A stretch of 22,928 nucleotides of DNA from Paraspadella gotoi (Eukaryota > Animalia > Chaetognatha): positions 1 through 22,928 of the forward strand of contig JBJCIZ010000121.1 in the NCBI GenBank assembly GCA_051294375.1. The letters are read 5' to 3'. The position numbers and the translations under genes were made by a program. Of the stretch, positions 734 through 22,928 are shown one piece after another. Each line of letters begins with the position of its first letter. The stretch's first letter is position 1. A model generated the notes under the pieces. It saw only the letters and a program-made list of their open reading frames with translations. It ran no database searches and was not told the origin of the DNA.

Positions 734-778
734 ATGTCGAAGTTTATTTACTCCTATTTGAATTTCAGTTTCATCAGC

Positions 779-4062: not shown

Positions 4063-4075
4063 AAAGGGGGGAGAA
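4063..4075 (+). promoter_or_regulatory. Polypurine tract (PPT) of copy A
   Basis: AAAGGGGGGAGAA immediately followed by TG; conserved at 22752-22760. Confidence 0.75.
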
Positions 4076-5100
4076 TGAGATCCCTTTTTTGGAGAAAAAC
4101 TAATCAATCTTGAGTAAACAAGTCTTTTCAAGTCACATAATTTGTGCGGAGATAAACATGATTCGATCTGCAACCGCCAAGACGAGTTTCCATGGCAACC
4201 GGGCTAGTTAAAGGTTCCTGATTCAGCAGTGGAAAGGTTGACGGTGGGAGTGAACCAGTACAAAGACCGCTGACGAATCACCGACGGATCTGCAGATGGG
4301 ATCGCCGACGGGCTCGCAGATGGGATCACCGACGGATCGCAGATGGGACCGCAGATGGGATCGCGGACGGGCTCGCAGATGGAAGTATCGACGATGGTTG
4401 GGAATTTGCAGCCACGAAAGGGGGGAGTCAATGCAGCATCGCCGTATCGGGGAATGCAGCCTTTTGGACGGGGGGAGGAAAAAGGAGAAACGATAAACTT
4501 ACCTTCAAGATGACGCAGTTTGAAATGATTTAGATGTATCACTATGTCTGCGCCTTTCTTTAATTGGCAACCTTGACATACGAGTATTTACAATGTTCCC
4601 AAGGTGGGAGTGTAACAATGGGCGCTAACATAGTGGTACGAGTGGTGAATGAGATGGAACCGATGATCATCTGTTTCCAAATCTTCCCTTACTTTCGCCC
4701 CCTACCGTTCTTGGTTCCAGCTCATTCTCCAATGGAAGGCTGAATCGTAAACATCGAAAATAATAATTTTCTACTATTTTACAAAAATGTAAATATTTAA
4801 TTAAATATTATTATTATCTAATTATTATAACTTAAGAATTAATTAATAAATTAATTCTTCCTTCCATTCTAGGTTTGAACATTCATTCCTTGTTATTTTT
4901 GGAATTCGCGAAAATGAACTCGTCTTCTAAAATAACTGGATAGTTCTACATTAAGTGAATTATATTTAGGTATTATTAGTTTAGACTAGTTAATTTTACA
5001 TTCGAAACATTTTTTCGTAAATTTTAGTTAATTAGTTAAAATTAATTTAAGGATTAAATTTAGGATTTTTATAATTTATAATGTAAAACTAACAAAAGGT
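4076..5100 (+). repeat. LTR between copy A and the gag-pol unit (start supported, end approximate; may include leader)
   Basis: Begins TGAGATCCCTTT after the PPT; 4076-4248 is homologous but diverged relative to 22761-22928. The 3' CA end and PBS were not identified. Confidence 0.55.
4277..4382 (+). repeat. About 24-bp tandem repeat in the LTR (about 4.5 units)
   Basis: Units ATCACCGACGGATCTGCAGATGGG / ATCGCCGACGGGCTCGCAGATGGG / ATCACCGACGGATCGCAGATGGG / ACCGCAGATGGG / ATCGCGGACGGGCTCGCAGATGG. Confidence 0.9.
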
Positions 5101-5385
5101 AAACTTTCTTCGATAGTGGCTCTGCCACGAAATATCGGAGGAAGTACAAAGGAACCGCGGCGCGGAATTTAACCCGTCGCGGGCAAACTTCGCCAGTTGG
5201 GGACCTTTACTCACGGACGAAGTAGTCAGGGAAGAAACTGAGCGTACAAAAATCTGAATTTTCCCCCTTTCAGATTAAAAAACCCTCGGTAAAAAAAATT
5301 ACGGAAATCGAAAATATTTAAGCTAAGCTAATTCCTTCGCGGCGCTTCGCTTCGCTTCCAACGGATTTTCCCAAGGTTAGAGACT

Positions 5386-7179: not shown

Positions 7180-7363
7180 ACTTCGAAACGGGTGGACTGA
7201 CGACTCGAAAACTTGGTGGGCTCTTCGACACCTGACCATCCTCCCCACACCGAGCGTCGAATCAGCTGGAAATCAGGGTTTTGATAGAAAACAAATAAAA
7301 CCAAAACAAACCGTATTAATAATGATTATACTCTCAAGTGATCGATGAGAATCCTTGTTCTGA

Positions 7364-8533
7364 CAATACACATGCGCGTCGGCTCCGAATCGCAGCAAAT
7401 CGCCCGAAGAATGGTCATTGGCACAATTATGTGCCATCCAACTTCAGCAACAGGCCTTTTCTTTGATGAGACAGAAGAGACCGAAACTCAAATTTTCTGG
7501 ACGGGACCGTCGTGTCGATTTCGACAATCAGCTTGCTCTCTTTAACACTCTTTATAGTATCCCAGGAATAACCAATGAGATGCTGGTAGGAGAACTACGG
7601 GAGTACTTCGCAGGTGATGCTCTCATAATCATCCAACAGTATGAATTGGGGAGTGATTATGCTAGGTCGCTAAAAAAGATTAAAAAGGCGCTAAAGGTTC
7701 AATTTGGTAGGAAAGCTTATACAGCGAGACACCTATTAGACAATTTATTAAAAGGTGCGAAAATTAATAGCCGAGATTCGGCGGGTTTAAAAACGTTTAT
7801 TTTAGAATTAGAAAAAATCTATCTGCGAGCGAAGGAGACAAATAGAGAAAAGACGTTCGCAACCCAAGAGATTTACACTGAGATTTTGTCGAAAAAGGCC
7901 CCACATTTGGGAAATGCATGGGCTAAAAGAGCCATAAAAAAGAAAATGGAATGGTTAGAGAGAGAAACTGATGATGAAGACGATGAATGTGACCTTGACC
8001 CTACCTTTGAAACGTTTATCAAATTTCTCAAGTATACGGCCGAAATATCTGAAATGGGTTCCATTTACTCAGGATTCGGCGCTCCGAGCGAAGGCAAAAC
8101 GCCAAACGCGGGACCAACGGCGACGTCAACCCCAAAGCCGCATCGAAAATCATTCCAAGTTCGATTTGCAGCTGTCGCGGCAAAACCAACGAGATCCGGG
8201 CAGATGTCAAAAAGCCAGAGCAACTCGTCCATGAACACTACGCCGAAATTTCCCCATCCGAACGCCAACCCGACGACGCATGCCCCAAGAACCCCGTCGA
8301 CGACCATATGCTACATGTGCAGTGCGAACCACCGGCTGGAGGCTTGTAGGAAATATATCAATCTCGGAATCGAAAAAAGGTGGGATTTTATCAAAAAAAA
8401 CAGTCTATGCCATGTTTGCCTAAGGCGTGGCCATGTTACAAAGGACTGTAAGAGCCTATTAGGTTGCCGAAAGTGCGCCGGTAGGCATCATGTCTCTGTC
8501 CACCCAGAGACGCCGGCGGCGAACTCATCTTGA
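7364..8533 (+). CDS. gag: Gag core with three zinc knuckles (open frame; start codon not defined)
   Basis: Frame open from 7364. KLKFSG...F capsid-like start; CYMCSANHRLEAC, CHVCLRRGHVTKDC, CRKCAGRHHVSVH match the CX2CX3HX4C / CX2CX4HX4C / CX2CX3HX4H triple typical of BEL/Pao. Confidence 0.92.
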   Translation, partial: QYTCASAPNRSKSPEEWSLAQLCAIQLQQQAFSLMRQKRPKLKFSGRDRRVDFDNQLALFNTLYSIPGITNEMLVGELREYFAGDALIIIQQYELGSDYARSLKKIKKALKVQFGRKAYTARHLLDNLLKGAKINSRDSAGLKTFILELEKIYLRAKETNREKTFATQEIYTEILSKKAPHLGNAWAKRAIKKKMEWLERETDDEDDECDLDPTFETFIKFLKYTAEISEMGSIYSGFGAPSEGKTPNAGPTATSTPKPHRKSFQVRFAAVAAKPTRSGQMSKSQSNSSMNTTPKFPHPNANPTTHAPRTPSTTICYMCSANHRLEACRKYINLGIEKRWDFIKKNSLCHVCLRRGHVTKDCKSLLGCRKCAGRHHVSVHPETPAANSS

Positions 8534-8623
8534 CTTGCAGCCGCGTACGCCGTCACAGGGACATTCCGTCCCATCGTTCCCGTTATTATCGCAAACGGAA
8601 ACAAAACGGTGACGACGTACGCG
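8531..8623 (+). promoter_or_regulatory. Candidate stop-codon readthrough signal (UGA-C, 8-nt spacer, long stem)
   Basis: TGA 8531-8533; CGCGTACGCCGTCAC (8542-8556) pairs 14/15 with GTGACGACGTACGCG (8609-8623), enclosing two small hairpins. Confidence 0.65.
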
Positions 8624-11600
8624 CTCCTCGACTCAGGAGCAACTCGCTCCGCGGTCGCAACTTCTATCGTCAACAAATTAAATTTAAACCCTTATACATT
8701 GTTCACTAACCTTACTACTTATGATGCAACTTCACAAATTTGGCGAGACTTCGTAGATTTTGAAATAAGAAATATGGACAATACTTATTCAGTAGAGATT
8801 AAAAAGGCGATTGTCGGCAAAATCCTAACATGTGAAAGCGATAAACCCGTAAAGAATAAAGATATAAGCGAGTATGACTATATGAGAGATGTTGAATTCG
8901 TTGAATTGAAACATAACAATGTCGATTTGATCTTAGATGCAAGCCTCGCCTCGGAATGGATCGGAGGACCTACACGAATCGGACCGCCGGGTTTGCCCTC
9001 TGCCCTACATACCACGTTCGGTTGGACCCTAATTGGACCAAGCGAAAACAGACGCCAAGGAGAGCATATTATTAGTTGCCTTGACGCCAACCCTTCAAGT
9101 TTGGAAGAACTTGAATTCCAAATCTCAAAATTGGAAAAAATGGATTTTTTAATGAAAGAATCCGAACATTATTCGTCCGAGGTTAGTCATCCATCCGTTT
9201 TAGATCAATACGCGATAGAGCAACTGGAAGCTGGAATCTTTTTTAATATCTCTACAGGTCATTACAGCGCCCCCACACCATGGAAAAGAGGGCGAGAGGC
9301 AACCGCGAAAGAGTTCAAGAAAATTAGGGAGGCCACAATCGCAAACGCAAAAAAGAGAGCCATCAAAACAGCAGAAAAATTGGCAAAGGATCCAATTTTG
9401 AGGAAAGGAGTCTTCGAGACGATGCGCGAAAGCATGGAGGTTGGTTTTTCGAGTAAAGTAAAAATAGAAAATTTGAACGGCGAATTGCCAGAATATTACA
9501 CCCCATTGCATATAGTTACGCGTCCTGACAAGCCTGGCAAATTTCGGATTTGTCAGGACGCGGCCTCAAAAACTCGAGGTACATTTTTAAACGAACATTT
9601 AATAGCAGGCCCCGATAACCTAACTCCTTTGTTGGGCGTTTTAATGAGATTCCGGAGAAGGAAAGTAACTTTGTCAGCTGACATAAAAGGGTTCTTCCAT
9701 CAAATCGAAATCGATCCTGCTGATCGAGGGGCTTTTAGATTTTTCTGGTATAGCGACGAAAATATGACAAAACTCGAAACCCATCAAGCTAATGTCCACA
9801 TTTTTGGCGGCTCAGGCAGCCCAGGAGTAGCCAATTGGGTGATAAAGTATCACATGAAAAAAATCAAAGACGAAGTATCTCTCGAAGCCTTTCTTTCCGT
9901 TTTTCTCCAGCTTTACATGGATGATCTTCTGGACTCCTTTAATACGCCACAAGAAGCTCAACAATTAAGAATAGAACTTACTGACGCACTCAAACGCGGA
10001 GGATTCGAGCTTTGCAAATTTAAAAGCTCGGATCCACGGGTGCTCAAGGATGATCCCATTTCAACTGAAGCTCCTCCAATCGCTCTCCAAGAGGCAGATG
10101 AACTCACGGATGATCTCGAGAGGATAGCGGAAAACGCCGCGCCAGAAAGCCCAATGGTTGAAGATCACACAAGTAAGATTTTAGGAGTCGGGTTTAACGC
10201 TGAAAAGGATATATTTTTTATCCGTATTACGGAAAAGGCTAAAAATGAGGCTGTCTCTCGACGAGATTTCTTGAAATTGGTTGCAAGCGTCTATGACCCA
10301 CTTGGGTTTGTCGCACCATACATCCTTAAAGGAAGGTCTTATTTTCAAAAGGCGACAAATGACCAACTCACCTGGGATGAAAAGGTCCCAGAAGATCTTT
10401 TTAAAAAATTTGATAAGTGGAGAAAGGAAATGGAGAGTTTAAAAAGATTTACCTTTCCCCGATGGACATCTATATTAGGCTTAAATGTCGCAAAAACGCA
10501 ATTAATAGTTTTCGCCGATGCATCATCGACCGGATATGGGGTTGTTGCATACTTAAAAAAGATGAACCAGGAGGAAGACAAATGTCACGTCTCCTTATTT
10601 TACGCGAAATCACACGTTGTCCCATTGCAGATGCAAAGGACATTAGTTCCAGGTCAAGAAGACCACCTCGAGAGTATGCCTCGTTTAGAACTAAACGCGG
10701 CAAGGCTTGCAGCACAATCTAGAGACACCATAGTTAGAGAGTCGGGAGAAGAATTTTTCAGTATTGTAATGCTAACAGATTCAATTACGGTATTAAACTG
10801 GATCAATGACTACACCAAAAGATTCAAAACCTTCGAACATTTCAGGCTTAAAACGATACGAAATTTATCTCCTATTCAGGAATGGCGTCACGTCGAAGGA
10901 AAGGAGAATCCCGCCGACTTCACATCCAGAGGCCTGGACGCGAACGACAAAAAGTGGTCCATTTACCACCAAGGTCCAGCTTGGCTCCATCGACCAGAGA
11001 ATGAATGGCCAACGTCGAAATATCCAACCAAATCATCGGCGAAAAAAGAAACACCCAAAAGCAAAGAGAATGTCTGCGAAGAAGTTAATATGGCCGCGAT
11101 TCACGACGACTGCACATATTCCCCAATAGAACTGGTCGTCGTTAATGCCACTCGTGCTTACCCGATCCTTCTGCCTTCGGACTCCAAAGATTGGGCGTTG
11201 AAGATCACGGATAAAGTTCCGGAATGGCGACAAAAGGTGAGAAGAGTCGCTTACTTTACGAAAGCTGTACCGAAATTTTTAGAGTTTTTAAAAGGCAAAA
11301 AAGAAGGAAAGAGAATTAAAATTGAAAACATTTCACTTACCGCTGATGATTTTAAGAATGCAAGGACGAAACTATATCGAGCTATACAGCGAACCCATTT
11401 TGAAAAGGAATTCTACGAATTATTTAAAATGGGTATATTATCTCCTGATGCAAAAAGGGAACTAAGAGCTAAAAGCTCAAGAATGATCTCGTTAAGCCCG
11501 TTCATTGATTCGGAAAACTGCATCAGAGCGGGCGGCAGACTTGGCAACGCCAAAGATATGAAATTTGAAACAAAACACCCTCTAGTACTGCCGAAAAACG

Positions 11601-12727
11601 ATGAAAGCGTGAACTCTATAATTAGGCACCACCATGAGCAATTAAAACATGCTGGAGGCTCCGCGACCTTTCACTCATTAAATCAAAAATTCGCTTTATT
11701 AGGAGGACGAGCAAATGTGGATGCCATCATCCGAAAGTGTCTACGGTGTCAAAAGGCTCACAAAAGCCCAACGCCGCAACAAATGGGACCCCTTCCGGGA
11801 TTTCGAGTGGAAGCAGCCATTCCCTTCAAAACCACGGGCGTCGATGTTTTCGGGCCTTATAAGGTAAAAAACGCCGGCAGAGGTTATAACAATAAACACG
11901 TCCTCCTTCTCACGTGCATGACCACGAGGGCAGTAGTATTTGAAGTACTGAAAGACATGTCAAGCATGTCAGTCATATCAGCCTTAATAAGATTCCGTTC
12001 ACATTTCCCAGGCTTGGAACGACTCGTCTCAGACAACGGAACAAATTTTAGAGGGATCGACAATGAACTCAAAAGGCAATTGAGAACGATTCGCCAAGAC
12101 GAGAAGTTTACAGAATTCATCGCCTCAAACGATATCAGGTGGGACTTTGGCCCTCCACACACCCCCCATTGGGGAGGAGTGTGGGAACGCCTTGTAAAAA
12201 GCACTAAAAAACATATTACAACCTCCTTACCCCAAGAACCCGATCTCGATACCTTTGTTACAATTTTATGCGAAATCTCCGCCATATTAAACAGGAGACC
12301 AATCACCCAGGCTCCAGCAAATCCCAATGAGATTATCGCGTTAAGTCCTGAAAATTTTTTATACCCGTACTTACACGCTTCAACGGCTTTAACGCTTCTC
12401 CCTTATGCTCCTACAGTTGGTGACACATTGCGAGCGTCCTGGAAGACCGTGCGTGACACAGCGGACAGATTCTGGATTCGATGGAAGCAGGAATATCTCA
12501 CGACCCTACGGAATAGGAGCAAGTGGACGACCTCGTCGGACAGCCTCAAAATCGGAGACATTGTCCTAATCGAAGAGGAGAACACACCTCGCGACATCTG
12601 GAGAGTTGGACGAATTCAGAAACTCGTAGGAGAAGATATCCACAAACGAGAAGCGATGGTGAAAACTTCAAACAAGAAGGAGATCCGTCGCCATGTGAAA
12701 ACTTTGATTAAACTCGAAGTCGATTAA
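8534..12727 (+). CDS. pol: Pol polyprotein: aspartic protease, reverse transcriptase, RNase H, integrase
   Basis: RPIVPV...TYALLDSGATRS (PR); LSADIKGFFHQI and LYMDDLL (RT); FADAS, PRLEL, TDS, NPADFTSRG (Pao-type RH); H..H...CLRC zinc finger, GVDVFGP, SDNGTNF, GGVWERLV (DDE IN); FWIRWKQEYL C-terminal motif. Uninterrupted and in frame with gag. Confidence 0.97.
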   Translation, partial: LAAAYAVTGTFRPIVPVIIANGNKTVTTYALLDSGATRSAVATSIVNKLNLNPYTLFTNLTTYDATSQIWRDFVDFEIRNMDNTYSVEIKKAIVGKILTCESDKPVKNKDISEYDYMRDVEFVELKHNNVDLILDASLASEWIGGPTRIGPPGLPSALHTTFGWTLIGPSENRRQGEHIISCLDANPSSLEELEFQISKLEKMDFLMKESEHYSSEVSHPSVLDQYAIEQLEAGIFFNISTGHYSAPTPWKRGREATAKEFKKIREATIANAKKRAIKTAEKLAKDPILRKGVFETMRESMEVGFSSKVKIENLNGELPEYYTPLHIVTRPDKPGKFRICQDAASKTRGTFLNEHLIAGPDNLTPLLGVLMRFRRRKVTLSADIKGFFHQIEIDPADRGAFRFFWYSDENMTKLETHQANVHIFGGSGSPGVANWVIKYHMKKIKDEVSLEAFLSVFLQLYMDDLLDSFNTPQEAQQLRIELTDALKRGGFELCKFKSSDPRVLKDDPISTEAPPIALQEADELTDDLERIAENAAPESPMVEDHTSKILGVGFNAEKDIFFIRITEKAKNEAVSRRDFLKLVASVYDPLGFVAPYILKGRSYFQKATNDQLTWDEKVPEDLFKKFDKWRKEMESLKRFTFPRWTSILGLNVAKTQLIVFADASSTGYGVVAYLKKMNQEEDKCHVSLFYAKSHVVPLQMQRTLVPGQEDHLESMPRLELNAARLAAQSRDTIVRESGEEFFSIVMLTDSITVLNWINDYTKRFKTFEHFRLKTIRNLSPIQEWRHVEGKENPADFTSRGLDANDKKWSIYHQGPAWLHRPENEWPTSKYPTKSSAKKETPKSKENVCEEVNMAAIHDDCTYSPIELVVVNATRAYPILLPSDSKDWALKITDKVPEWRQKVRRVAYFTKAVPKFLEFLKGKKEGKRIKIENISLTADDFKNARTKLYRAIQRTHFEKEFYELFKMGILSPDAKRELRAKSSRMISLSPFIDSENCIRAGGRLGNAKDMKFETKHPLVLPKNDESVNSIIRHHHEQLKHAGGSATFHSLNQKFALLGGRANVDAIIRKCLRCQKAHKSPTPQQMGPLPGFRVEAAIPFKTTGVDVFGPYKVKNAGRGYNNKHVLLLTCMTTRAVVFEVLKDMSSMSVISALIRFRSHFPGLERLVSDNGTNFRGIDNELKRQLRTIRQDEKFTEFIASNDIRWDFGPPHTPHWGGVWERLVKSTKKHITTSLPQEPDLDTFVTILCEISAILNRRPITQAPANPNEIIALSPENFLYPYLHASTALTLLPYAPTVGDTLRASWKTVRDTADRFWIRWKQEYLTTLRNRSKWTTSSDSLKIGDIVLIEEENTPRDIWRVGRIQKLVGEDIHKREAMVKTSNKKEIRRHVKTLIKLEVD

Positions 12728-13258
12728 AAAACATTGAATTTATAAGAATTTGAAGTAAATTTTTTCTTGCTTCAACTACTTATCGTGCAAAAAATTTAAA
12801 AAATTGTACCTGGTTTATTATTGATCGTCAACTACTATGTTTCTAACCGAACGAGTACGTAATCATTTATTAGATAACTTGCCCGTTGTTTGGGAAATAC
12901 TTACCTTTGAAATTCAAAACCGCTGGCTGAAACAAATAATTAGTTAATCCTTGAATTAATGATGAGTACACATATTTAGTTCGAATGGCCAATTTATTTA
13001 CTTGGACGCCGCGTTTAAAATTTGTCTCGCAATCAAGTACAAGAGCATTTGTTGTCCAACAAATCCTATGAGCAACAGACGAACACAAAGCCGATTAGTT
13101 GATTAAGTAATTAGTTATTGCTGAGCTAGATTCGCAGATTAGCAAAAAACAAAGATTAGTAAGAATCTGATACTTATCTGTTTACTTACCTGAAACCGAA
13201 TTATTCAATAACACTTATTTTTCTTACCCAGTATTACCTGTTTGAAGCACATTTCAAA

Positions 13259-13798
13259 ATGGAACCGGCGAACACGATCACAATTGAAGATGAAACTCTG
13301 AGTCAGAATGAGTCATTACCTGCTTCCTTGGGGACAAAGTCGACGCCGCCAGCCTCTCCAGTATTTTCATCGCAGCCAGAATCCGAGGCCGCACCGCCAT
13401 CAAGCTCCGCGTCAATGTCAGAGTTCAAAGACGAGGACATCATCGAAGTCTTGGAAATCTCGAAATGGGCTCCACCATCATCCCCGTCTTCATCCGAGGA
13501 CGAAAAGATCGTTCTAACGAAATCAACGAGTTCGGAATGCCTCGTCGAACTGCGAGAAAAGTGGGAAAAAGAAAGAAAGCACGAATTCCTCCGTCAGCAA
13601 CGAAAAAGGAAAGAAGCGAGGGAGCGCGTACGAATTTGGGAGAAAGAAGTAAAGCGCCTACGAGAAGACCTACAATGCGAAAGAGAGCGAAAAGTGAAGG
13701 AAAAACTGCGTGAGGAAATACGAGGAATCAAAAAGGAAAAGAGGAATCGTGCTCTCCTCGCTAAGATCTATGAAATGGAGAACTCGGAAGAGATTTGA
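13259..13798 (+). CDS. Accessory protein (179 aa): Ser/Pro/acidic N-half, K/R/E coiled-coil C-half
   Basis: ATG ORF after an AT-rich spacer with ACTTACCTG (13184) and an AG acceptor; biased but protein-like composition. Confidence 0.7.
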   Translation: MEPANTITIEDETLSQNESLPASLGTKSTPPASPVFSSQPESEAAPPSSSASMSEFKDEDIIEVLEISKWAPPSSPSSSEDEKIVLTKSTSSECLVELREKWEKERKHEFLRQQRKRKEARERVRIWEKEVKRLREDLQCERERKVKEKLREEIRGIKKEKRNRALLAKIYEMENSEEI

Positions 13799-13941
13799 AT
13801 TTGAATTCTGAATCATTTAACTACCTGTTCGGTTTTTGTTCAATCTTTCTTTTTCTTTTCAAGCAGTAAAATTTAGTCAAGCCATTCAGAGTCGCTTCCA
13901 AACTCGAGGCCGCCCGCTGGGTTTTCTCTGCTCAAGTCGGC

Positions 13942-14043
13942 AACGTCCATCTCGGCGACGGAATTTCTTTCGGCGCTTCCATTTCAGCCCGAAGCCGCGA
14001 ACGTCCATTCGGCGACGGAATTTCTTTCGGCACTTCCATTTCA
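13942..14043 (+). repeat. Direct repeat, 2 x 44-45 bp
   Basis: AACGTCCAT(C)TCGGCGACGGAATTTCTTTCGGCRCTTCCATTTCA at 13942-13986 and 14000-14043. Confidence 0.9.
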
Positions 14044-14179
14044 ATTGTCGCGATGTCGTCGGTAAGGAAATACAGAACAATCCATAAATCGATTCATTTG
14101 ATTAAACATCAGTATTTAAACTTAGGATGCAGCAGCCGAGCGCGCAAGGACGCTAGCAGCAGCGACCTGCAGAAGACCA

Positions 14180-14744
14180 ATGGCATGGGTTAGGCCATTC
14201 CATCCGGATGAGCCAAACCCTCCGGGGGTGGACGATCCGCCACTCAGGGCCAGGATTGAATCTCCAATTGCAGCGCCACTCAGGGCCAGATCTTCGGCTG
14301 CAGCGCCACTCAGGGCCAGGATTGAATCTCCAATTGCAGCGCCACCAGGGTCAGGATTCGATAGCCTGCAGCGCCACCCAGGGTCAGGATCGAACCTGCA
14401 GCGCCACTCGGCAGGACTCGAACCTCCAGCTGCAGCGCCATCAGGTCAGGATCGAACCTCCAGCTGCAGCGCCATCCAGGGTCAGGACGAACCTCCAGCT
14501 GCAGCCCATCCAGTGGTCAGGATCGAACCTCCAGCTGCAGCGCCCGCCAGGTCAGGATCGAACCTCCAGCTGCAGCGCCATCCAGGGTCAGGATCGAACC
14601 TCAGCTGCAGCGCCACCACAAATCTGGACTTATCCGCCAACTCCTGAACCGCAGTACTACAGAGGCTCGCCCGAACGATTCGGGTACCCACCTCTCCTAG
14701 ACGAAGACTCGGACTCGGACATCGTAAGGAAATTTATTATATGA
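14180..14744 (+). CDS. Possible repeat-containing Pro/Ala-rich protein; frame unstable across the minisatellite
   Basis: Two overlapping open frames (14180-14647, 14208-14744), RIEPPAAAP repeats, AATAAA at 14781. Openness may simply reflect the GC-rich repeat. Confidence 0.35.
14237..14616 (+). repeat. GC-rich minisatellite, about 30-36 bp unit, about 11 copies
   Basis: Consensus GCAGCGCCATCCAGGGTCAGGATCGAACCTCCAGCT with small indels between units. Confidence 0.92.
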
Positions 14745-15062
14745 AAAATGCTAGTAAACATTTATTATCAAAAAGATGCTAATAAACAAATGTTCCCTAG
14801 GAGATTACCTACGTCTCAAACCCACGGGCGAGAATCATAAGGCGCGAGGCGGACCACGACTCCGAAATCGCTAGGAACGTAACTTCAACGATCCGTGACT
14901 TGCGCGTATCGCTGTCGCGCGGACGGTCACCAGCTCGGGAGCAGGACGCCAGACCGCGCATCCCGGTCAAAGAGAGATTAGGCTGGCGCGTCAATTAAAA
15001 ACAGGAAAACAGCAATTAAACTGAAAACGTGGATAAGAAACTAATGAGTTAAACGACCAGTC

Positions 15063-15168
15063 GTTGTGATAACCAAATTATTTTTCTATGTATACAATCC
15101 GCAAACATAGTTGTGATAACCAAATTATTTTTCTATGTATACAATCCGCAAACATAGTTGTGATAACC
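15063..15168 (+). repeat. Perfect 47-bp tandem duplication plus 12-bp partial third unit
   Basis: GTTGTGATAACCAAATTATTTTTCTATGTATACAATCCGCAAACATA at 15063 and 15110; GTTGTGATAACC at 15157. Confidence 0.95.
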
Positions 15169-15281
15169 TGATTATTTGTTCATGTCCTTCTTCACATATT
15201 TGTTAGTTTACAGACTCCGTTGCGACAGCATAACAACAAGATTTAACATTTTGACCATTCAAAACGTATTGAGTCCGAGAA

Positions 15282-15593
15282 ATGGAGAAGAAAACTGTAT
15301 CAAATGCACAATCGGCGCCATCGACGCCGCCAACGCCACACCGGCCGGAACCCACGATGAACTTTATCTTCGCGGAAATACCTCTGCCTCGACGCCGCTT
15401 AGCCACGCCACTTTCGGGAACGAAGATTGGGTTCATTATCCCGTCTCACGTCATGTCGACGGACACATATTGCAAAACTCCATGAACAGTATTTCGCGCA
15501 ATATTCTCACGTTCATTGTTAGCAGCGCCTCGTTATTCGGAGGAAGAGGAAAGGAAACAAGAGAGATGGCTTAATGATTCAGCGGCGAATTAA
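15282..15593 (+). pseudogene. Possible small accessory gene with internal TGA at 15483-15485
   Basis: GC-richer island between AT-rich spacers. The ATG frame continues past the TGA as TVFRAIFSRSLLAAPRYSEEEERKQERWLNDSAAN to TAA at 15591-15593. No homolog in the window. Confidence 0.3.
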
Positions 15594-15843
15594 CTGCATT
15601 CCCTTCCTTTATTTATTGAATTATTTTCAGTATATTACTAGAACTCACCTTTAAAGTTGGCGACGCCGGAGACTTGAAATCTGAAAACCTAACACGAGGA
15701 GAAATCTAATCCGAAAACGAAGACCCAGCGCGAACTTCGGTGACGAAATTATGAGATTAATGAACAAATATTTAATGCAAACTTACCCGATGATAACAAA
15801 ATAATAATAAAATTTATCTACTTATAGAAGCCCTCGGCGAATC

Positions 15844-16083
15844 ATGTCATCCCGACGAGTTCTGTTCAATAGGATCATCGACCTCATTCCGATGGAACAT
15901 TTGGCCGAATTCTACGATAGATATAACCATTGGTATGATAAGACGATGCTTCGGATGGATCAAATAGAAGCTCTAAGTTTATCGGAGATAAACAAAGAAC
16001 TCATACTTCAGTTCGTCATGAAGAGAAGACGAGAAATGCTTCAAAAAATCATCATGGAACTGCGAGACAGAGCTGAGAAATAA
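15844..16083 (+). CDS. Accessory protein family gamma (79 aa)
   Basis: RIIDLIPMEHLAEF...HWYDKT resembles the next ORF; TTATAG acceptor upstream. Confidence 0.75.
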   Translation: MSSRRVLFNRIIDLIPMEHLAEFYDRYNHWYDKTMLRMDQIEALSLSEINKELILQFVMKRRREMLQKIIMELRDRAEK

Positions 16084-16166
16084 TTATGGAATCGATTAAT
16101 CAAAAAACTTACCTATTTGTTCGTGAATTATCCGATTAACTTACCTTTAGTTTATTATCAGCGAAA

Positions 16167-16463
16167 ATGCAAAGGGAACGCATCGAGATAGTTGGAGAAC
16201 TTCATATGCGGATTTTACTCGAACTCATCCCAATACGGTACAAAGAAGAATTTGTCATCGAATTTGGACGTTGGAAAGAGCGAACGGAAAAGAAACTGAA
16301 TGACGCAGCAGACGAACTGATGATACAGTATGCCCCAAGCCGCGTTCCCACTGCATCATTGGAGATATTGGATCACATCGAACGAGATGCTCTTGAAGAC
16401 ATTCACGCTATTATTCGGGATTTTACTTATCGTGCTCGCACACAAGACGAAGAACAAAGATGA
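16167..16463 (+). CDS. Accessory protein family gamma (98 aa)
   Basis: RILLELIPIRYKEEF...RWKERT; ACTTACCT at 16139 and ATCAG acceptor just before the ATG. Confidence 0.78.
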   Translation: MQRERIEIVGELHMRILLELIPIRYKEEFVIEFGRWKERTEKKLNDAADELMIQYAPSRVPTASLEILDHIERDALEDIHAIIRDFTYRARTQDEEQR

Positions 16464-16551
16464 ATATGCTGTCTCAATTGGCAAAAATTGATAATATCGC
16501 TGACAATTTCGTAGTAATTGATTAAAATTATGGTGTTCGTTATTTAGGAGA

Positions 16552-16758
16552 ATGACCTCATTTAATGGTTATACGTACGGTAGATTTGGCATTTGCTATA
16601 ATGAAACTCATGGAGTCCCGTATTCTGATCCTGAGAGAGCAAGTGCAAAACGATCCCTGATTTTGCTGAAAAGCAAAAAGATGATTATTCCGGTGTCCAC
16701 TCCGAATCAAAAGATAACAAACTCAATGCAAAAAGTGGAAAAAACCCCGGATGGATAG
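16552..16758 (+). CDS. Possible small accessory ORF (68 aa)
   Basis: Fills a slot in the array, with TTTAG just upstream of the ATG; no paralog seen. Confidence 0.4.
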   Translation: MTSFNGYTYGRFGICYNETHGVPYSDPERASAKRSLILLKSKKMIIPVSTPNQKITNSMQKVEKTPDG

Positions 16759-16840
16759 TTATTCATTATTGCAATTTATTACCTGTTCAAGTTATTATTT
16801 CGAGTATGTTTTTTTTTAAAAAAAAGATTCAGCCCACAGG

Positions 16841-17179
16841 ATGTCTGACAAAGTCGTTTGGCTATGGGACGAATGGAGAAGTCTGAAGCTTCAGAAAGAA
16901 AGTGAGAACAGAAACAGAAAGATTCTGGACGTAATCCTCCGAGAAGCCGAAGCGAATTTATCCTACAAACCTGACTGGGTAAAAGAGATCCTCCTCGGTG
17001 AGAACAAAGGTCCGAAAGACGAAGCCCAAAAGGCAATTCGTCTTGCAAAAGACTGGATAAAGACGGCGGAAATCCTGAAAAAAGAAAAACCCGGAAGAGA
17101 AAAAACTTTCGAAGCCATCATAAAGATGATGCAGGAGCAGATCGGGAAGCAGGAAGTCATTCTAAAAAACATTTCATGA
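16841..17179 (+). CDS. Accessory protein family alpha (112 aa)
   Basis: Shares EW..L, P[DE]W and K.EA...[IV]R.AK.W.KTA..L with 17768-18112. Confidence 0.82.
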   Translation: MSDKVVWLWDEWRSLKLQKESENRNRKILDVILREAEANLSYKPDWVKEILLGENKGPKDEAQKAIRLAKDWIKTAEILKKEKPGREKTFEAIIKMMQEQIGKQEVILKNIS

Positions 17180-17277
17180 ATAAATAAATCTATATGAACT
17201 AATGCAAGAGAATACTGAAAGTGCAGATTGAGTTGTTTTAATTTTGTCGTTATGTACTCGCAGCGTTAACAGATACG

Positions 17278-17661
17278 ATGCAAAGCGGATCTTCACCGAT
17301 TTCAATCTACTCCAGAGAACATCTTGAGCTCTGCGTTTTTAAGCGAAGCAAGACGGACGAACTGGAAGAACGTTTACCAGGCTGCGTCGAAAAGTGCATT
17401 GAGTTAGCGCAAAGTTATTCCACAAAAATCGAAAAGTTGCGCAAGATCATCGCCAAGAAAAAGGCAAAAAACCCGGCAACAAATGTGAAAGAATTCACCG
17501 AAAAAATCAAAAAGATGGAAGAAGAGTTCCCGACCATAGAACGATGGAAGGAAATATACCTGAGCAGAGGCTGCATTTTTAGTCGTGAGAGTCTGGAATC
17601 GGTCAAGGATAAACTTTCCCCGAGAGAAACGGTCGAGGTCGTGGGATTTTCAGTGATGTGA
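17278..17661 (+). CDS. Accessory protein family beta (127 aa)
   Basis: LPGCVEKCIEL ... IERWKEIYLSRGCIFSRESL, clearly similar to 18184-18504. Confidence 0.82.
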   Translation: MQSGSSPISIYSREHLELCVFKRSKTDELEERLPGCVEKCIELAQSYSTKIEKLRKIIAKKKAKNPATNVKEFTEKIKKMEEEFPTIERWKEIYLSRGCIFSRESLESVKDKLSPRETVEVVGFSVM

Positions 17662-17767
17662 AATCAGAAAAGATTTAAATGAACTTATGAATTATTAATT
17701 CATTGTCACGAAATATATTCATTTAATAGGATATTCATATTTACAGCTAATACTTACCCGCTTCAAA

Positions 17768-18112
17768 ATGTCCGATCCAGTAGGCGGTGCTCAATACTTA
17801 CAGGAATGGAAGTATCTTTACGACAACGAAGGGAAAATGAAGGACAAATATTTCGGAAGGAATTTGAACGTAAAGGAGCAAGAGGCGAGGATCAAGCGGC
17901 ATCCGGAATGGTTCAGGAATGGACCTGAAGACTACAAGATAAAGCTAAAAGGAGAAGCGGAGGAAAGTGTCCGCAGCGCGAAAAGCTGGAGAAAAACCGC
18001 TGTGATGCTCAGGTTTCATCAGAAGGAAAAGACCGAAATTTATGATGAAATCTATAAACTGATCAATGACTACATTGAAGAGAAAGAAAGGGAAATTCGA
18101 ATCTTATCGTGA
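17768..18112 (+). CDS. Accessory protein family alpha (114 aa)
   Basis: Paralog of 16841-17179; EIYDEI is also shared with 18612-18965. Confidence 0.82.
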   Translation: MSDPVGGAQYLQEWKYLYDNEGKMKDKYFGRNLNVKEQEARIKRHPEWFRNGPEDYKIKLKGEAEESVRSAKSWRKTAVMLRFHQKEKTEIYDEIYKLINDYIEEKEREIRILS

Positions 18113-18183
18113 AAATTGGTTCAATTTCCAAATTGAGAAATAGTTGTTTATCGTGTTTTTTTTTTAGTTACACCCAGAGCAAA

Positions 18184-18504
18184 ATGCAAGGTTATTGCGG
18201 ATACTCGGCTCATTGCTACAAGGATTTTCGAGAATTCGTTGTGAAACGAACCGAGGAATTCAATAATGAAGCTCCCGATTGCGTCGAAAGGTGCCTTGAT
18301 CTTATCAAAAGGTATTCAGGGGAACTGAACCAACTGCAAGAGGCCGTCAAGACATCAGGAGATGAAGCGAAAACCCATCATGAGCGAATCGAAACTCTAA
18401 AAGAAGAAATATCCTTCGTTGAGAAGTGGAAAAGAATCCGGCTCGCTCAAGGTCACATCTTCACGTATGAGAGTCTTGGAACATTAACCGAGGAACTGCC
18501 GTAA
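18184..18504 (+). CDS. Accessory protein family beta (106 aa)
   Basis: ATG at 18184 after a T-run/TAG acceptor; APDCVERCLDL ... VEKWKRIRLAQGHIFTYESL. Confidence 0.82.
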   Translation: MQGYCGYSAHCYKDFREFVVKRTEEFNNEAPDCVERCLDLIKRYSGELNQLQEAVKTSGDEAKTHHERIETLKEEISFVEKWKRIRLAQGHIFTYESLGTLTEELP

Positions 18505-18611
18505 AAAGGACAATTCAACTTACCTTCGAGTTTGATAAGATTATCTCCATGTTTAAATCCACTCTTATTCAAAGTTTAAACTGATTCATTTAGTCTAGCC
18601 ATTACCATACG

Positions 18612-18965
18612 ATGTCCCGAGTAAAGTCTATCGCCGAAATTCAAGAGGAAATCGCCCGCGATTGGGAAAAGGCGAGAAACATGGACGATTACTATCAAAG
18701 GAACTCTATTGTGGAAAGCATAGTATTTCGGGAACACGAAGTACGAATCCGAAAGAAAAAGGAGGAAAGAGAAGAAAGGATGAAAGGTAGCAAAGCCATC
18801 GAAGCATCCGAAATCTACAAGGATATCCAAGAGTTCGAAAGCCGCCGAAAACTAGCGATGGATGCAAAACGCAAAAGGCCAAATCTCGGAGAGATCTACG
18901 ACGAAATCGGAGATAGAGCAAAGAAACTACAAGCGGAGGCGAAAGAACGTTTAATGAAAATTTAA
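18612..18965 (+). CDS. Accessory protein, tentatively family alpha (117 aa), copy B
   Basis: Counterpart of 8-361. Confidence 0.87.
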   Translation: MSRVKSIAEIQEEIARDWEKARNMDDYYQRNSIVESIVFREHEVRIRKKKEEREERMKGSKAIEASEIYKDIQEFESRRKLAMDAKRKRPNLGEIYDEIGDRAKKLQAEAKERLMKI

Positions 18966-19040
18966 AAAAAAAAAAAAAACTTTTCTTTGATCGGCTCATT
19001 AAACCCCGGTGTCAATTTACTTACCTTATTCAGTTACGAA

Positions 19041-19343
19041 ATGTCGTTAAATTCCGAGTTCCGCATTCGAGAAATGCGACTCTACGCTGGTTATCTGATT
19101 CCAAAGTCGTTGGAGGAAGCTTTACAAAAATTAAGAGGTTACGAAAAAGAACTTATTCGAGAAGAGCAAGAGATCGAAAAAGGAAAGAAAGGAGAAAAGA
19201 CAAAACGAAGTCTCGAATGCCACGAAGGCAGGGCAAAGTACCTACAAGATCATATTGAGATGCTTAGGAAATGGCCGGATATTCTGGAGCAAGAGGGAAA
19301 GATATTCATGTCCAGAACCTATGAAATTCCTGAGTATTGTTAA
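19041..19343 (+). CDS. Accessory protein family beta (100 aa), copy B
   Basis: ATG at 19041 gives the same length as 431-733; ACTTACCT at 19019. Confidence 0.87.
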   Translation: MSLNSEFRIREMRLYAGYLIPKSLEEALQKLRGYEKELIREEQEIEKGKKGEKTKRSLECHEGRAKYLQDHIEMLRKWPDILEQEGKIFMSRTYEIPEYC

Positions 19344-19396
19344 ACATTTATATTACTTACCTTTAAAAAAATTTAGTTTTGTAATAGTACTACGAA

Positions 19397-19657
19397 ATGT
19401 CTGAAGTGAGAAGAAACTTCAAAAAGTATGCCAGAGAAAACGCGATATTCTGGCTGCCTACAAGTCTCGAAGATGCATTGGACGAGATACAAAAGAGGGA
19501 AGACAACCTGGTTCGGAGGATTCAAGAATATGGGATCCATGGCGCGGATGAGCGCGAATTCAAGACAATCGCACAGCTTACCAGATGGGCGAAAATCCTG
19601 GAAGAGCAAAGAGAAATCTTTTCGCTGGAAACCAAAACTATAATGAATCTTCATTAA
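19397..19657 (+). CDS. Accessory protein family beta (86 aa), copy B
   Basis: Intact counterpart of 779-1042; LPTSLEDAL ... RWAKILEEQREIFSLET. Confidence 0.87.
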   Translation: MSEVRRNFKKYARENAIFWLPTSLEDALDEIQKREDNLVRRIQEYGIHGADEREFKTIAQLTRWAKILEEQREIFSLETKTIMNLH

Positions 19658-19720
19658 CTTATTTTTTTTTAGTCGCCACAATATTGATTCAGATGAATAA
19701 TCAATTTATTTTAAGCTAAA

Positions 19721-20056
19721 ATGAATATCAAAGCTTTCAACGAAATCCGGAACCAAATAAACAGAGATTGGAATGACCTGGACCAAAGACCCTGGAGCCA
19801 GGGAAAGACAAAATCCATCATCAGCTTGATGATCAGAGAAGACGCATTATGGAATCTGAGAGAAGAGGAGATCAGAAAACAAGTCCCACGAACGATTGCG
19901 GAAGTTAGAAAAGCAACGGAGAGATCAAAAAATATTATATGGCTGATCGGAGAAGCATTAAAGGTCAAGCCTAAAAACGCAACCATCTACCTCCAATTCA
20001 TCAAGGCGGAAAAAGAAAAGATGGAGAAACTCGAAAAGGAAAATCACGTTCGATGA
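19721..20056 (+). CDS. Accessory protein, tentatively family alpha (111 aa), copy B
   Basis: Counterpart of 1116-1448. Confidence 0.85.
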   Translation: MNIKAFNEIRNQINRDWNDLDQRPWSQGKTKSIISLMIREDALWNLREEEIRKQVPRTIAEVRKATERSKNIIWLIGEALKVKPKNATIYLQFIKAEKEKMEKLEKENHVR

Positions 20057-20170
20057 ACTCATAATCGGTCTTCTTTATTTAGTTGCTCCTTATTGGCGTG
20101 AATTATCATTCATTAACTTTTCCTTTTCGTCATTATTAACAATTCTTGTTTGTTTATAAAGGCAGCGGAT

Positions 20171-20521
20171 ATGTCAAAAAGTCAGGACTCCGACCATTGG
20201 ATTCGCGGCCATTGTCAACTGACTTATATCATGAAGAATCGGATGAAGCAAGGGATACACCAAAGAATGCCGAGTTCCGCTGAGGAGTCATTTGAGCAGC
20301 TCAGAGAGAACTGTTCAGAGATGGCGAAAAACGAAATCGTCATGGAGATGAAGCTTGCCGAAAATGCCCAAGCGGACGTAGAAGTTGAAAAGAAAAGAAT
20401 TCAAATCCTCAACGACGAGAATACAAACCTTAGCCTCTGGGTAAAATTCAAGCTTCAACGGGAGGATTTATTTTCCGAAAGGACTTTAGACGACATCACA
20501 ACAGAATCCTGTGATAATTGA
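20171..20521 (+). CDS. Accessory protein family beta (116 aa), copy B
   Basis: Counterpart of 1540-1884; MPSSAEESF ... LWVKFKLQREDLFSERTL. Confidence 0.85.
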   Translation: MSKSQDSDHWIRGHCQLTYIMKNRMKQGIHQRMPSSAEESFEQLRENCSEMAKNEIVMEMKLAENAQADVEVEKKRIQILNDENTNLSLWVKFKLQREDLFSERTLDDITTESCDN

Positions 20522-20740
20522 CATTTATTTCATGTTGTCTGGTTTATTGATATAATTGTCATTGGCCCCTTTATTGAAATTGATTGGGTAATCGATTGTT
20601 TACTTACTTTAACAGGGCATCTTTCTGATAAAAAGTGTGATCACACTTTAAACTTGAACTCATTGAAATAAACTTGCGATATTTTAAGCGACGCGCGACC
20701 GGAGCGGGACTTCACTCAGTCCGAAAATAGCAAATTCAAG

Positions 20741-20831
20741 GTGAAATATATTCAATACTTACCTGAAAAAATAATATAATTCAAGATATATAACAATCAT
20801 TTAAATACTCACAAAAATTACCTGTTCCCAG
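20741..20831 (+). other. 91-nt 5'UTR spliceosomal intron, absent from copy A
   Basis: CAAATTCAAG|GTGAAA...TTCCCAG|ATGCTT in B versus contiguous CAAATTCAAG|ATGCTC at 2127-2142 in A. Confidence 0.8.
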
Positions 20832-22214
20832 ATGCTTAATTCCCGCGACACCATGTGGAGTAATGACGAACTCCTGAATCTCTCTCTCGACGTACCGGGA
20901 GAAGATTACGCTTCCATATTCCCGTCAACACCTCTTTTCGAAACGCAGAATTGCGCAAATCCGGACGACATAGCGGGCTTCAACGGAAAGGACCCGCTAA
21001 GTCTCAACACACCTCCAAATCCTAACTCCCTCTTCGATCAAAGTATCCCTCCCACAATTAGTACACCCATTTCATCTCTTATGGAACTTCCAGAGGTACT
21101 TAAATTTAAAATTGTTGGGTTATTATTGTTATGTGCTTATACTCACCTGCGATATTACTTATAGCCAACTCTTCTTCAACGTCAGCCATTGGACAACGCG
21201 TTGGAAGATTCTTCATCAAGCGACGGAACGTTGCCCTACGAGATACCACCCACGCCTAAAACCCCACCCAACTTATCTACGACGCTCTTTGATCCGCCAA
21301 CCCGAAGAATGCCGCCAATTCCGATGAAAAACGGGGCAATAGATACATCTCGGTGCAATAACAATCTCAGCCTCCTTGCATTCAACGACGAAAAGATTCC
21401 GTTCATCGTCGGGACGACCGACGAATGGAAGTTCAGGCCGGATGTCTCGCTTTCGGGCAAAATCGGAAAGTGGATCAAGACATGCCGACGCAATTGGCGG
21501 AAAGTTGCAAAGAAACGCGGCATCGATTACGTCAAGTTCGTCTTCGAGAATTTTGGTCTTCTCGTCAATCCCAGCGAGCCTAAAGTCGAAAGACTTCACC
21601 TACCTTCAAATGGCGTTCAAAGGGCGACGATAGCCAAAAGAAACGTCGTCATCAGAAAACCGGCGCCATCAGCTTCATCATCGTCCATCGTCGACTCGGT
21701 GACGCTCGGGGCGCCGTTGGCATCGTCGTCATTTAACGACATATCGGCGGAGTCAAAGAGACCGCGAAGCGATGAAGTTCGTCGTCTACTCGCCGAAAAA
21801 GAGACCTTAAAGTTAGAACGCGACAAATTCAAGGATCGCGCGGCAAAATTGGAGGAAGAACTCGCTCAGGAAAGGAAGTTACGTGAAAAGGATCGCGACC
21901 GCTTTGAGGAGAAAATCAACAAGATAAGAGAAGACTCCGATAAACGTATCGATCGCTTAACAGAGACCCACCTTCACGAGATCAAGAGCTGGCGAGAGGC
22001 CCTTTGCGTTCCCCAACCGTCAAGTTCCCACTTACCTCAAAAAAGTAAAGAGAAAAGTCGTGAACTTCCCAAAATGCGTGTACATAGTGAACCGTTCAAA
22101 ATCGCAGACACTCGTCCCCACTTACCTGTTTTTGATCCCCCACCTCATTTGCAACATCTGACGAAACCCCCACGTCAATCCCCACCCCCTCGTAAAATAC
22201 AAAAAAAGTATTAA
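20832..22214 (+). CDS. Two-exon 437-aa Pro-rich/basic/coiled-coil protein (exon 1 20832-21095, intron 21096-21164, exon 2 21165-22214)
   Basis: The GAG|GTACTT...TTATAG phase-0 intron joins two ORFs in frame, at the same position as in copy A. Exons are conserved while the intron has diverged. Basic WIKTCRRNWRKVAKKRG segment, long coiled coil, basic C-terminus. Confidence 0.85.
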
Positions 22215-22751
22215 AAAAATAGTTACTTACTCTGTACATGTTTATCTTTGAAACCGTCAGGCTGATTTGTATTATAAACAATCAAATTTAATTAACTGAC
22301 GGCTAAAGTCTTACCAACTTTACATTATAGAACATTATCATTTACTTTCCTTTCGTTGAACAACTATTGATGATACTTAATGCTTCTATATAAATAGGAT
22401 TATTTTATTTTATTGATACCTGCTTCCTCATACAAGCAAAATTATTCATGGAATTGATATTCACTTACCTCCTCGTAGAGTTATCTGTTCATTTAACTCC
22501 TCGTGGAAATATAAATAGTCACTTACCTTTTCGCGTATATAATTAGTCATCTAATTAATACTTACCTACCTTTCGTACGTACAATTACTTATCCGATCGA
22601 TATGAAGCAATATGCATAATATAAATGAGAATTTGCTCTCCTGTTCCCCTCTTCTAACAATAAAATTGGACAACGTAATAAAGTAGAATTTAATTTCAAA
22701 TAAGAGATAGTTGAGAAAGGACAAGGTCAAATTTAATTACCCCTCACAAAT

Positions 22752-22760
22752 GGGGGAGAA
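22752..22760 (+). promoter_or_regulatory. Polypurine tract (PPT) of copy B
   Basis: GGGGGAGAA followed by TGAGATCCCTTT, as at 4067-4087. Confidence 0.75.
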
Positions 22761-22928
22761 TGAGATCCCTTTATTAAAGCTGAGTTCCCAAACTAAACCC
22801 GAGTAAATTCAAGCGAATCACATAATTTGTGTGAGGATAATTAAATCCGATCGAGACGGCCGAGACGCATTCCCTGGGCCACCGAGTTGCTGAGAGTTCC
22901 TGGTTGATGCGGGAAAGATCAACGGTGG
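22761..22928 (+). repeat. Start of 3' LTR (truncated by window end)
   Basis: Homologous to 4076-4248 (TGAGATCCCTTT, GAGTAAA, TCACATAATTTGTG, GTTCCTG, GGAAAG, ACGGTGG) but with many substitutions. Confidence 0.75.

Follow-up and report, generated by a model that had tools for sequence, protein, structure and literature searches.

A giant BEL/Pao retroelement of Paraspadella gotoi and the putative accessory gene array behind its pol

Introduction

BEL/Pao retroelements, which are bounded by long terminal repeats (LTRs), usually measure 4.2-10 kb and few of them carry an envelope gene (env) (PMC3118150), and their named clades have been set out (PMC6238403). Giant LTR elements such as Ogre and Burro are already known (PMC6431247). 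Here we analyse 22,928 nucleotides (nt), the whole of which we call the window, from the chaetognath Paraspadella gotoi (GenBank assembly GCA_051294375.1, contig JBJCIZ010000121.1, positions 1 to 22,928, forward strand), in which a BEL/Pao element has a dense array of small genes on the strand of its pol gene, between pol and the 3' LTR. A preliminary description of this DNA, made from its letters, had proposed a giant element whose operon-like array of about 15 accessory genes stands in place of env.

Several described systems resemble parts of this locus. It shares with other BEL/Pao elements the order of protease, reverse transcriptase (RT), RNase H and integrase, the Pao Pfam domains, a gag with three Cys/His knuckles, a polypurine tract (PPT) and an LTR starting with TG, but it spans about 19.7 kb rather than 4.2-10 kb and has about 16 extra gene candidates rather than at most an env (PMC3118150); its separate gag has a UGA-CU junction, and its pol groups only with unnamed metagenome proteins. 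The planarian giants Burro and GYPSM1 are also LTR elements with large extra coding capacity and accessory open reading frames (ORFs), but they are Gypsy elements with a 4,873-amino-acid (aa) polyprotein containing captured domains and with env homology (PMC6431247), whereas a BEL/Pao pol of 1397 codons is followed here by orphan paralogues. The ORF3s of bdelloid rotifers are non-env genes behind pol, some of them coiled-coil, but there is usually one ORF3 per element, often an enzyme, and no tandem multigene array (PMC5408684). CERV of the Caenorhabditis elegans element Cer1 is a novel helical protein with a spliced message in an element that needs to export unspliced RNA, and serves us by analogy as a model for two intron-containing genes of the array, although CERV is a single protein partly shared with Gag (PMC10309623). 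The sORF1 and sORF2 of MDG1-group elements are accessory ORFs of about 70-110 aa that are under selection in env-less elements, but there are two of them, mostly before gag, and sORF2 is a membrane protein, which the array proteins are not (10.1101/2025.03.14.642691). Foamy-like endogenous retroviruses of fish, up to 17 kb long (PMC6431247), likewise place accessory genes behind pol and ahead of the 3' LTR, but are Retroviridae with env.

No description of a BEL/Pao element with a multigene array was found in literature listings and abstracts; Repbase, Dfam, GyDB and supplements lay outside that scope and may hold the family. Complex retroviruses express their accessory genes, far fewer than here, through alternative splicing or an internal promoter. 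We read the locus as a complex, virus-like BEL/Pao element that would express its array as spliced single-gene messages encoding soluble intracellular counter-defence effectors, and we put the probability of this reading at roughly 0.55.

Results

Two LTR elements share the window (Table 1). Of the first only the 3' end is present (1-4075); an LTR begins at 4076, and the second element continues to the next LTR start at 22761. The two LTR starts are 18,685 nt apart, and adding the LTR, about 1.04 kb long as far as its uncertain 3' end allows, gives the size of about 19.7 kb. Between pol and the 3' LTR of the second element (12728-22760, + strand) we count 16 gene candidates of our own, so that the same-strand ORFs first reported before the PPT and LTR are borne out in number, and far exceed shuffled DNA: at 15600-20600, ATG-initiated ORFs of 68 aa or more number 13 on the + and 4 on the minus strand, and those of 98 aa or more 9 and 0, where 500 base shuffles of the same interval gave means of 0.49 and 0.06 for the two size classes, with maxima of 3 and 2. 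A compact block at 15844-20521 is 80% coding, with 12 genes of 68-127 aa and spacers of 53-114 nt (median 83). The proposed richness in Lys, Glu and Arg also holds, these residues making up 26-42% of 11 of the 12 compact genes (19% in the gene at 16552), as does the AT-richness of the spacers, with 31% GC in the non-coding DNA of the array and the 3' ends. What does not stand is the picture of about 15 separate genes: the array is there, but many of its members are tandem paralogues, the ORFs at 20832 and 21309 are one gene, and 14053-14998 is one spliced unit. The candidates at 15182/15282 and 16552 are the least secure. A 47-nt tandem repeat (2.6 copies, 15063-15185) lies in the spacer ahead of the compact array, a possible internal promoter region.

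Table 1. Features of the window, in order of position
Feature	Position	Strand	Remarks
Upstream diverged copy, five small accessory genes	8..1884	+	counterparts of 18612, 19041, 19397, 19721, 20171
Upstream copy, individual genes	8-361, 431-733, 779-~1040, 1116-1448, 1540-1884	+	premature stop 968-970 in the third
Upstream copy of last, intron-containing gene	2137..3507	+	intron 2400-2472; frameshift near 2160; second exon 77% aa identity
Upstream element 3' untranslated region (UTR) and PPT	3508..4075	+	PPT 4063-4075
LTR, head-to-tail junction	4076..5116	+	begins TG; 3' end uncertain; 73% identical to LTR start at 22761
gag	5386..8533	+	two frames here, 5386-7179 and 7466-8533; three Cys/His knuckles; TGA end in pol frame
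pol (protease, RT, RNase H, integrase; BEL/Pao type)	8534..12727	+	Pfam domains, motifs
Dispersed ACT[TC]ACC(T)	12728..22760	.	spacers, one intron, 3' UTR
Accessory candidate, 179 aa	13259..13798	+	Ser/Pro-rich N-terminus, K/E/R-rich helix; no second copy in window
Spliced accessory unit	14053..14998	+	introns 14062-14125, 14724-14800; last exon Arg/Ser-rich
Uncertain candidate	15182..15574	+	130-aa frame overlapping 67-aa frame 15282-15485; diverged contig matches 15374-15465
Family C pair	15844..16463	+	15844-16083 (79 aa), 16167-16463 (98 aa)
Single small candidate, 68 aa	16552..16758	+	diverged contig matches 16542-16683
Alternating block	16841..20521	+	A 16841, B 17278, A 17768, B 18184, A? 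18612, B 19041, B 19397, A? 19721, B 20171
Last accessory gene, 437 aa, spliced	20832..22214	+	one intron 21096-21164
Second element 3' UTR and PPT	22215..22760	+	PPT 22752-22760
3' LTR start	22761..22928	+	window end cuts LTR after 168 nt

The last six genes recur in the same order in the upstream copy at 8-3507, much as the preliminary description had it, at about 73% identity (BLAST 71.5-72.8%; 2987 of 4103 aligned columns identical), and in both copies a PPT and an LTR starting with TG follow. The five small gene pairs are 62-92% identical in aa, with nonsynonymous divergence (dN) of 0.04-0.26 against synonymous divergence (dS) of 1.5-2.2 or saturated; pooled over all six pairs, dN is 0.16, dS 2.2 and dN/dS 0.07, which is also the value for exon 2 of the last gene. 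A third variant of the gene at 19397 has 22 of 25 differences, among those listed for its best matches, at third codon positions, and 35 of the 36 antisense frame-gene pairs are closed. These six array genes are under purifying selection as proteins, and the proposal of an accessory genome lying between pol and PPT of a BEL/Pao element gains support from position, recurrence and selection together.

The array is very probably borne by the element. No LTR or repeat was found between pol and array, both copies end in the series array, UTR, PPT and LTR, and contigs of two sequencing runs, possibly of the source sample, bridge pol and the first array gene (X1, 10866-14142 with 1 difference; X2, 11322-14267). 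Diverged contigs follow the array gene order, with joints at 15948-16242, 16327-16542 and 16683-17448 (of one depth and taken as one contig) and at 17046-17165-17480. Summed depth at 19576 is 1529 in X1 and 479 in X2, and at most listed pol sites about 1070-1890 and 200-430, with window-identical X1 contigs at 44-51; the best-kept array gene thus resembles pol in depth, which is not a copy number. Runs X5-X8 cover array genes and little or none of gag-pol, and we give this no weight since these runs were found via the array. It is improbable, in our view, that array and LTR are a separate non-autonomous element, or a tandem kept by the host such as a minus-strand small-RNA cluster, that merely abuts pol. 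LTR starts only 73% alike, the head-to-tail layout, the want of a readable target-site duplication (TSD), the lack of a second contig joining pol to array, and an enrichment of splice donors and AATAAA on the minus strand would all suit such an arrangement, but the boundary between pol and array bears no LTR or repeat, selection acts at the protein level on the + frames, the spacer motif treated below recurs in the spacer of the third variant (behind 19648), and the best-kept array gene has a depth near that of pol.

The second element is a BEL/Pao element by its pol order, its Pao-type domains, its knuckles and its PPT with TG-starting LTR. Its pol, described before as intact, is indeed uninterrupted, a single stop-free frame of 1397 codons that contains in order the protease motif LDSG, the RT motif YMDD, RNase H and an integrase HHCC/DDE region. 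Pfam matches above cut-off are Peptidase_A17 (E 1e-32; 113.6 bits against a cut-off of 22.3), DUF5641 (E 3e-21; 75.7 bits against 23.1), RVT_1 (E 7e-11) and Integrase_H2C2, and the Pao domain PF05380 is present in 82 of 82 database matches of pol. Three Cys/His knuckles in gag are a criterion of BEL/Pao, and here such motifs stand at residues 282, 315 and 334 of the 7466 frame; a DUF1759 match in gag (E 0.012) is below the Pfam cut-off. Contigs of X1 and X2 over 5651-7964 differ from the window by 10-12 letters plus 29 gap letters.

The gag gene terminates in TGA-CTT (8531-8536) with pol in the same frame, and UGA-C is a read-through context. Among six loci checked, the four nearest have the TGA-CT junction at the same place (L001:1043, L002:321, L004:3775, L006:168), and the remaining two, which are more distant, have no stop there. 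From these sequences Gag-Pol is likely made by UGA read-through at a junction common to the clade. The stem 3' of the gag stop has a z of -5.2 in the window against -2.2, -1.0, +0.9 and -2.0 in four relatives.

Sequence comparison resolves most of the array into two or three families expanded in tandem and two genes with introns. Family B (17278, 18184, 19041, 19397, 20171) is held together by shuffle Z values of 8-21 and five invariant columns, family A by the paralogues 16841 and 17768 (Z 12.9), to which 18612 and 19721 tie weakly (Z 3-4, a range that some cross-family scores also reach), and family C by 15844 and 16167 (32% identity in alignment, Z 5.4, 0 of 300 shuffles). A profile alignment of A with B gave no match. 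Paralogues within the array are 15-32% alike against 62-92% for counterparts across the copies. AlphaFold2 predicts an antiparallel helical hairpin both for 18184 of family B (pLDDT 82) and for 17768 of family A (pLDDT 69, with about 90 in the C-terminal half), and the last gene has an acidic, Pro-rich N-terminus, a small globular-looking stretch, a coiled coil and a basic Pro-rich tail.

Along 16841-20521 A and B genes alternate, and it is conceivable, though very improbable, that A-B pairs are toxin-antidote or drive modules favouring transmission of the element. The alternation repeats three to four times, so that a pair resembles a duplicated unit, but two of the four A assignments are the weak ones (Z 3-4), B was duplicated alone at 19041 and 19397, and no enzyme or toxin family appears at the Pfam cut-off.

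The position of the array, in the place of env, also raises the question whether it might stand in for env in function, through particle assembly, transport or cell-to-cell spread by scaffold or ESCRT-like hairpins. We regard this as unlikely. ESCRT-III hairpins are among the top fold matches of family A (Snf7, Z 9.6, rmsd 1.9 over 66 residues), but they tie with many unrelated hairpins and fall under the bar of Z about 13 that the alignment tool sets for helical bundles, and a scaffold is less likely to have duplicated repeatedly and diverged fast. Neither a membrane segment or signal nor an env glycoprotein was found in the array, unlike the case of sORF2 and FAST proteins (10.1101/2025.03.14.642691): the 19-residue hydropathy peak is at most 1.01 in the compact genes, reaching 1.57 solely in an intron read-through stretch, and the largest array ORF, of 437 aa, has no Pfam family at cut-off. 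Because its proteins have no membrane segment we conclude that the array is not env, in agreement with the first description.

The proteins had not been recognised at the outset, and families A, B and the last gene are still without a credible homologue in large collections. None of 2226 candidates (lengths 60-205) was homologous to family A, nor any of 7722 (lengths 160-527) to exon 2 of the last gene. P0199, the lone match of the family B profile in 1.84 billion representatives, was rejected as a Thr/Ser-rich repeat protein with a short-repeat match. Pfam gave 0 of 18 array ORFs at cut-off, PHROGs 0 of 17, Rfam no match, and viral contigs no match for pol or the last gene; PDB sequences gave nothing for the last gene and, for family B, only GCN4 coiled coils at E 0.018-0.09. 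With tblastn, none of 25 array ORFs matched any of 79 related loci at E 0.01. The genes at 13259, 14053, 15182 and 16552 and family C were scanned against Pfam, PHROGs and, by tblastn, the 79 loci. Foldseek on predicted structures, put forward earlier as a means of recognising the proteins, brought no identity: family B had nothing at E 0.001, and Foldseek and VIA-align otherwise returned only generic hairpins, by which no named fold is excluded.

Long frames reappear once three GT-AG introns of 64-77 nt are removed. Two link the three exons of the 14053-14998 unit, and the third fuses the ORFs at 20832 and 21309 into 437 aa, with the matching upstream intron also keeping the frame. Within the first unit a 35-nt tandem repeat (14238-14616) has open frames on either side (176 aa and 237 aa) that are mismatched in this copy. 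Its last exon, 14801-14998, has an Arg/Ser stretch and a KERLG motif, which we take to be reminiscent of RNA-processing factors. Since introns are kept in an element that is copied from RNA, the genome RNA must leave the nucleus unspliced, and the two intron-containing genes, with their Arg/Ser-rich or basic tails, would be candidates for its export.

How would the remaining genes be expressed? A YAG preceded by a pyrimidine-rich stretch lies at most 25 nt from the ATG at 14 of 19 starts, against 7.0 in shuffles, 0 of 2000 of which reach 14, and the poly(A) hexamers AATAAA or ATTAAA occur in 3 of 11 compact-block spacers. Both findings fit a scheme in which one long RNA is made, all transcripts end in the LTR and a leader is joined at each acceptor, so that single-gene messages would result. 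Two contig starts may be weak hints of such joining: an X7 contig begins on the G of acceptor 15826-15827 and carries 8 unmatched letters, and an X5 contig begins on the G of 18166-18167 next to a T run; none of five further starts checked falls on an acceptor. One X7 contig has a 13-A tail behind LTR position 4810, again a weak hint, as contigs cannot show RNA ends. No RNA data set among those listed contains the element. There is about an even chance that the leader is supplied in cis, as a shared leader of the element; a spliced leader of the host is doubtful, and separate promoters or another source are equally so. An internal promoter is known for the env of Tor (PMC4402516), and several invertebrate groups have both operons and trans-splicing (PMC12460157, PMC12582326).

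The spacers carry a striking motif. The 4,420 non-coding bases of the two copies contain ACT[TC]ACC, mostly followed by T, 25 times, where 0.5 are expected and 300 shuffles gave a maximum of 3; the same DNA has no ACT[AG]ACC, no sense GT[AG]AGT, and TTTATT 23 times against 10 expected. The motif is the reverse complement, or mirror, of a 5' splice site, on one strand only, and its letters are those that we take to be the 5' end of U1 snRNA. In array and UTRs the minus strand has 55 matches to the donor consensus at 7 or more of 9 positions and the plus strand 2, against 7 and 5 in gag-pol, and 33 and 2 U1-complementary sites lie on these strands in 12728-22760. Only 5 of 20 upstream-copy sites have a counterpart within 4 nt, so the motif has been lost and regained, its density being kept rather than its position. 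It is present in the spacer of the third variant too (a loose end behind 19648), and no excess was found in the nearest loci with long 3' sequence. A branch-point reading was rejected (ACTAAC 0, ACTGAC 1, no excess), as was a minus-strand protein gene (antisense frames closed, donor positions not conserved). With a chance that we judge a little short of even, the motif acts on antisense RNA: transcripts capable of silencing would be cut into pieces at the frequent donors and poly(A) signals; we favour this because the motif is present in the 3' UTR and in an intron. Somewhat less probably, it would be a U1-like sequence in sense RNA that could pair with donors of the element's own RNA or of a leader RNA.

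The latter thought leads to a true operon, with a host spliced leader (SL) trans-spliced at each acceptor and the spacer sequence ACUUACCU pairing with the 5' splice site of the leader RNA. The nematode Ur element pairs with the 5' splice site of leader RNA in this way. It reads TAYYTT and lies about 50 bp before the acceptor (PMC7668243), and U1 is not used in trans-splicing (PMC11229312). Our motif contains TACCT[TG], near to TAYYTT, and 9 of 16 spacers in the downstream copy and 3 of 5 in the upstream copy have it 14-94 nt ahead of the ATG. The median spacer of 83 nt falls within the nematode intercistronic range of 74-213 bp (PMC7668243), spacing near 100 nt with an acceptor-like site before 14 of 19 starts is as in nematode SL operons, and the LTR has no strong cis donor. 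Against this, only 3 of 11 spacers contain a poly(A) signal (AATAAA or ATTAAA) and no leader sequence came to light; the motif, moreover, turns over in position, is dense in the 3' UTR as well, and occurs inside a cis intron and once on the 3' side of the best acceptor (17752). The term 'operon-like' that was used before fits the spacing of the genes, but the presence of a poly(A) signal in no more than 3 of the 11 compact-block spacers speaks against it, and we consider a true operon unlikely.

In an RT-RNase H tree the window's pol falls within a clade of unnamed proteins (local support 1.0), from which 15 named animal proteins stand apart; the tree comprises 80 sequences, 3 of the 82 matches having been dropped for short cover, and no references of the named clades BEL, Pao, Sinbad, Suzu, Tas, Dan, Flow and Sailor. 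The clade (P0001-P0039, P0044, P0058) is a well-supported, diverse group of BEL/Pao made up only of unnamed metagenome proteins. Some relatives have other long ORFs behind pol (L005:4841-6082, L013:2513-4807, L004:7777-10254), K/E/R-rich with Arg-Ser repeats and unrelated to the array by tblastn, and L004 and L005 have an intron-like GT..AG stretch there. Distant BEL/Pao loci have ORFs of 580-1360 aa behind pol (L037:6395-10471, L045:6860-9814, L072:6937-9585, L074:6649-9783, L075:4276-6027), those of L045 and L075 within LTR pairs, and these are possibly env-like. L066:1-13230 holds a 5.9-kb unit in two copies 99.97% alike with a spacing of 7294 nt, either a tandem element or an assembly loop.

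At the head-to-tail junction (3508-5385) a single LTR closes an element of one subfamily on its 3' side and opens one of another subfamily on its 5' side; it is perhaps recombinant, or the product of an element that targets its own copies. A candidate primer-binding site, TGG at 5117, is without a tRNA match. A 12-nt tandem repeat of about 8 copies lies within the LTR at 4286-4382, where contigs vary. A shorter LTR-like variant without 4683-4930 (keeping 4611-4682 and 4931-4992) occurs with other flanks in X1 and X2, and is the deepest contig in runs X6-X9 (97-421). CpG shows no depletion in the window (observed/expected 1.27), a value compatible with several groups of invertebrates.

Discussion

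We propose that this BEL/Pao element encodes, rather than an envelope, soluble effectors that would blunt host silencing and aid the export of unspliced genome RNA. That the array proteins are effectors is suggested by their being small, soluble and helical, by tandem expansion and fast divergence of paralogues, and by the strong constraint on each gene. The specific role in counter-silencing and genome-RNA export is drawn by analogy with the accessory genes of complex retroviruses and with CERV of Cer1, and we would give it even odds.

A number of observations weigh against the reading as a whole. Counter-defence rests on analogy while the fold matches are generic, the best Z values of 8.4 for family B and 9.6 for family A being among ties. 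The array is not clade-wide, because the nearest loci with long 3' sequence (L004, L005, L013; pol 33-36% identical) carry different and larger ORFs without any match to the array, and no second contig with both pol and array was found. For ten of the 16 candidates the window offers no second copy, and ORF statistics, paralogy and diverged-contig matches are what supports them. As to splicing, 5 of 19 starts fail the acceptor test, upstream ATGs occur in 11 of 16 downstream-copy spacers, and the LTR and leader contain no strong sense-strand donor (best 6 of 9 positions). Among the best-supported contig joints listed there is no spliced array-gene junction, and contigs run unspliced across spacers. 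The two LTR starts, identical in 117 of 161 columns, are not a fresh pair, and no TSD is readable in a head-to-tail layout with only 168 nt of the 3' LTR inside the window. The gag frame of the second element is broken between 7180 and 7465, which may hold for a single allele or for this assembly only. Both copies are perhaps inactive, given the interrupted gag, the premature stop and frameshift of the upstream copy and LTRs 73% alike.

It is tempting to speculate further that the locus is a self-duplicating ten-kb genome of orphan effectors, expressed as a host trans-spliced operon, with U1-mirror motifs that recruit leader RNA or shred antisense transcripts, but we think this combination doubtful. 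If our preferred reading of counter-defence effectors in a complex BEL/Pao element is right, an LTR retrotransposon without env can build an accessory genome as large viruses do. The array would supply candidates for anti-silencing and RNA-export proteins, together with paired copies on which selection can be tested, and the 50-fold excess of splice-donor mirrors on one strand is a testable signal bearing on retroelement splicing and antisense RNA. Because full-length elements were bounded at 2-15 kb in the survey of BEL/Pao elements (PMC3118150), giants of this kind may have been missed.

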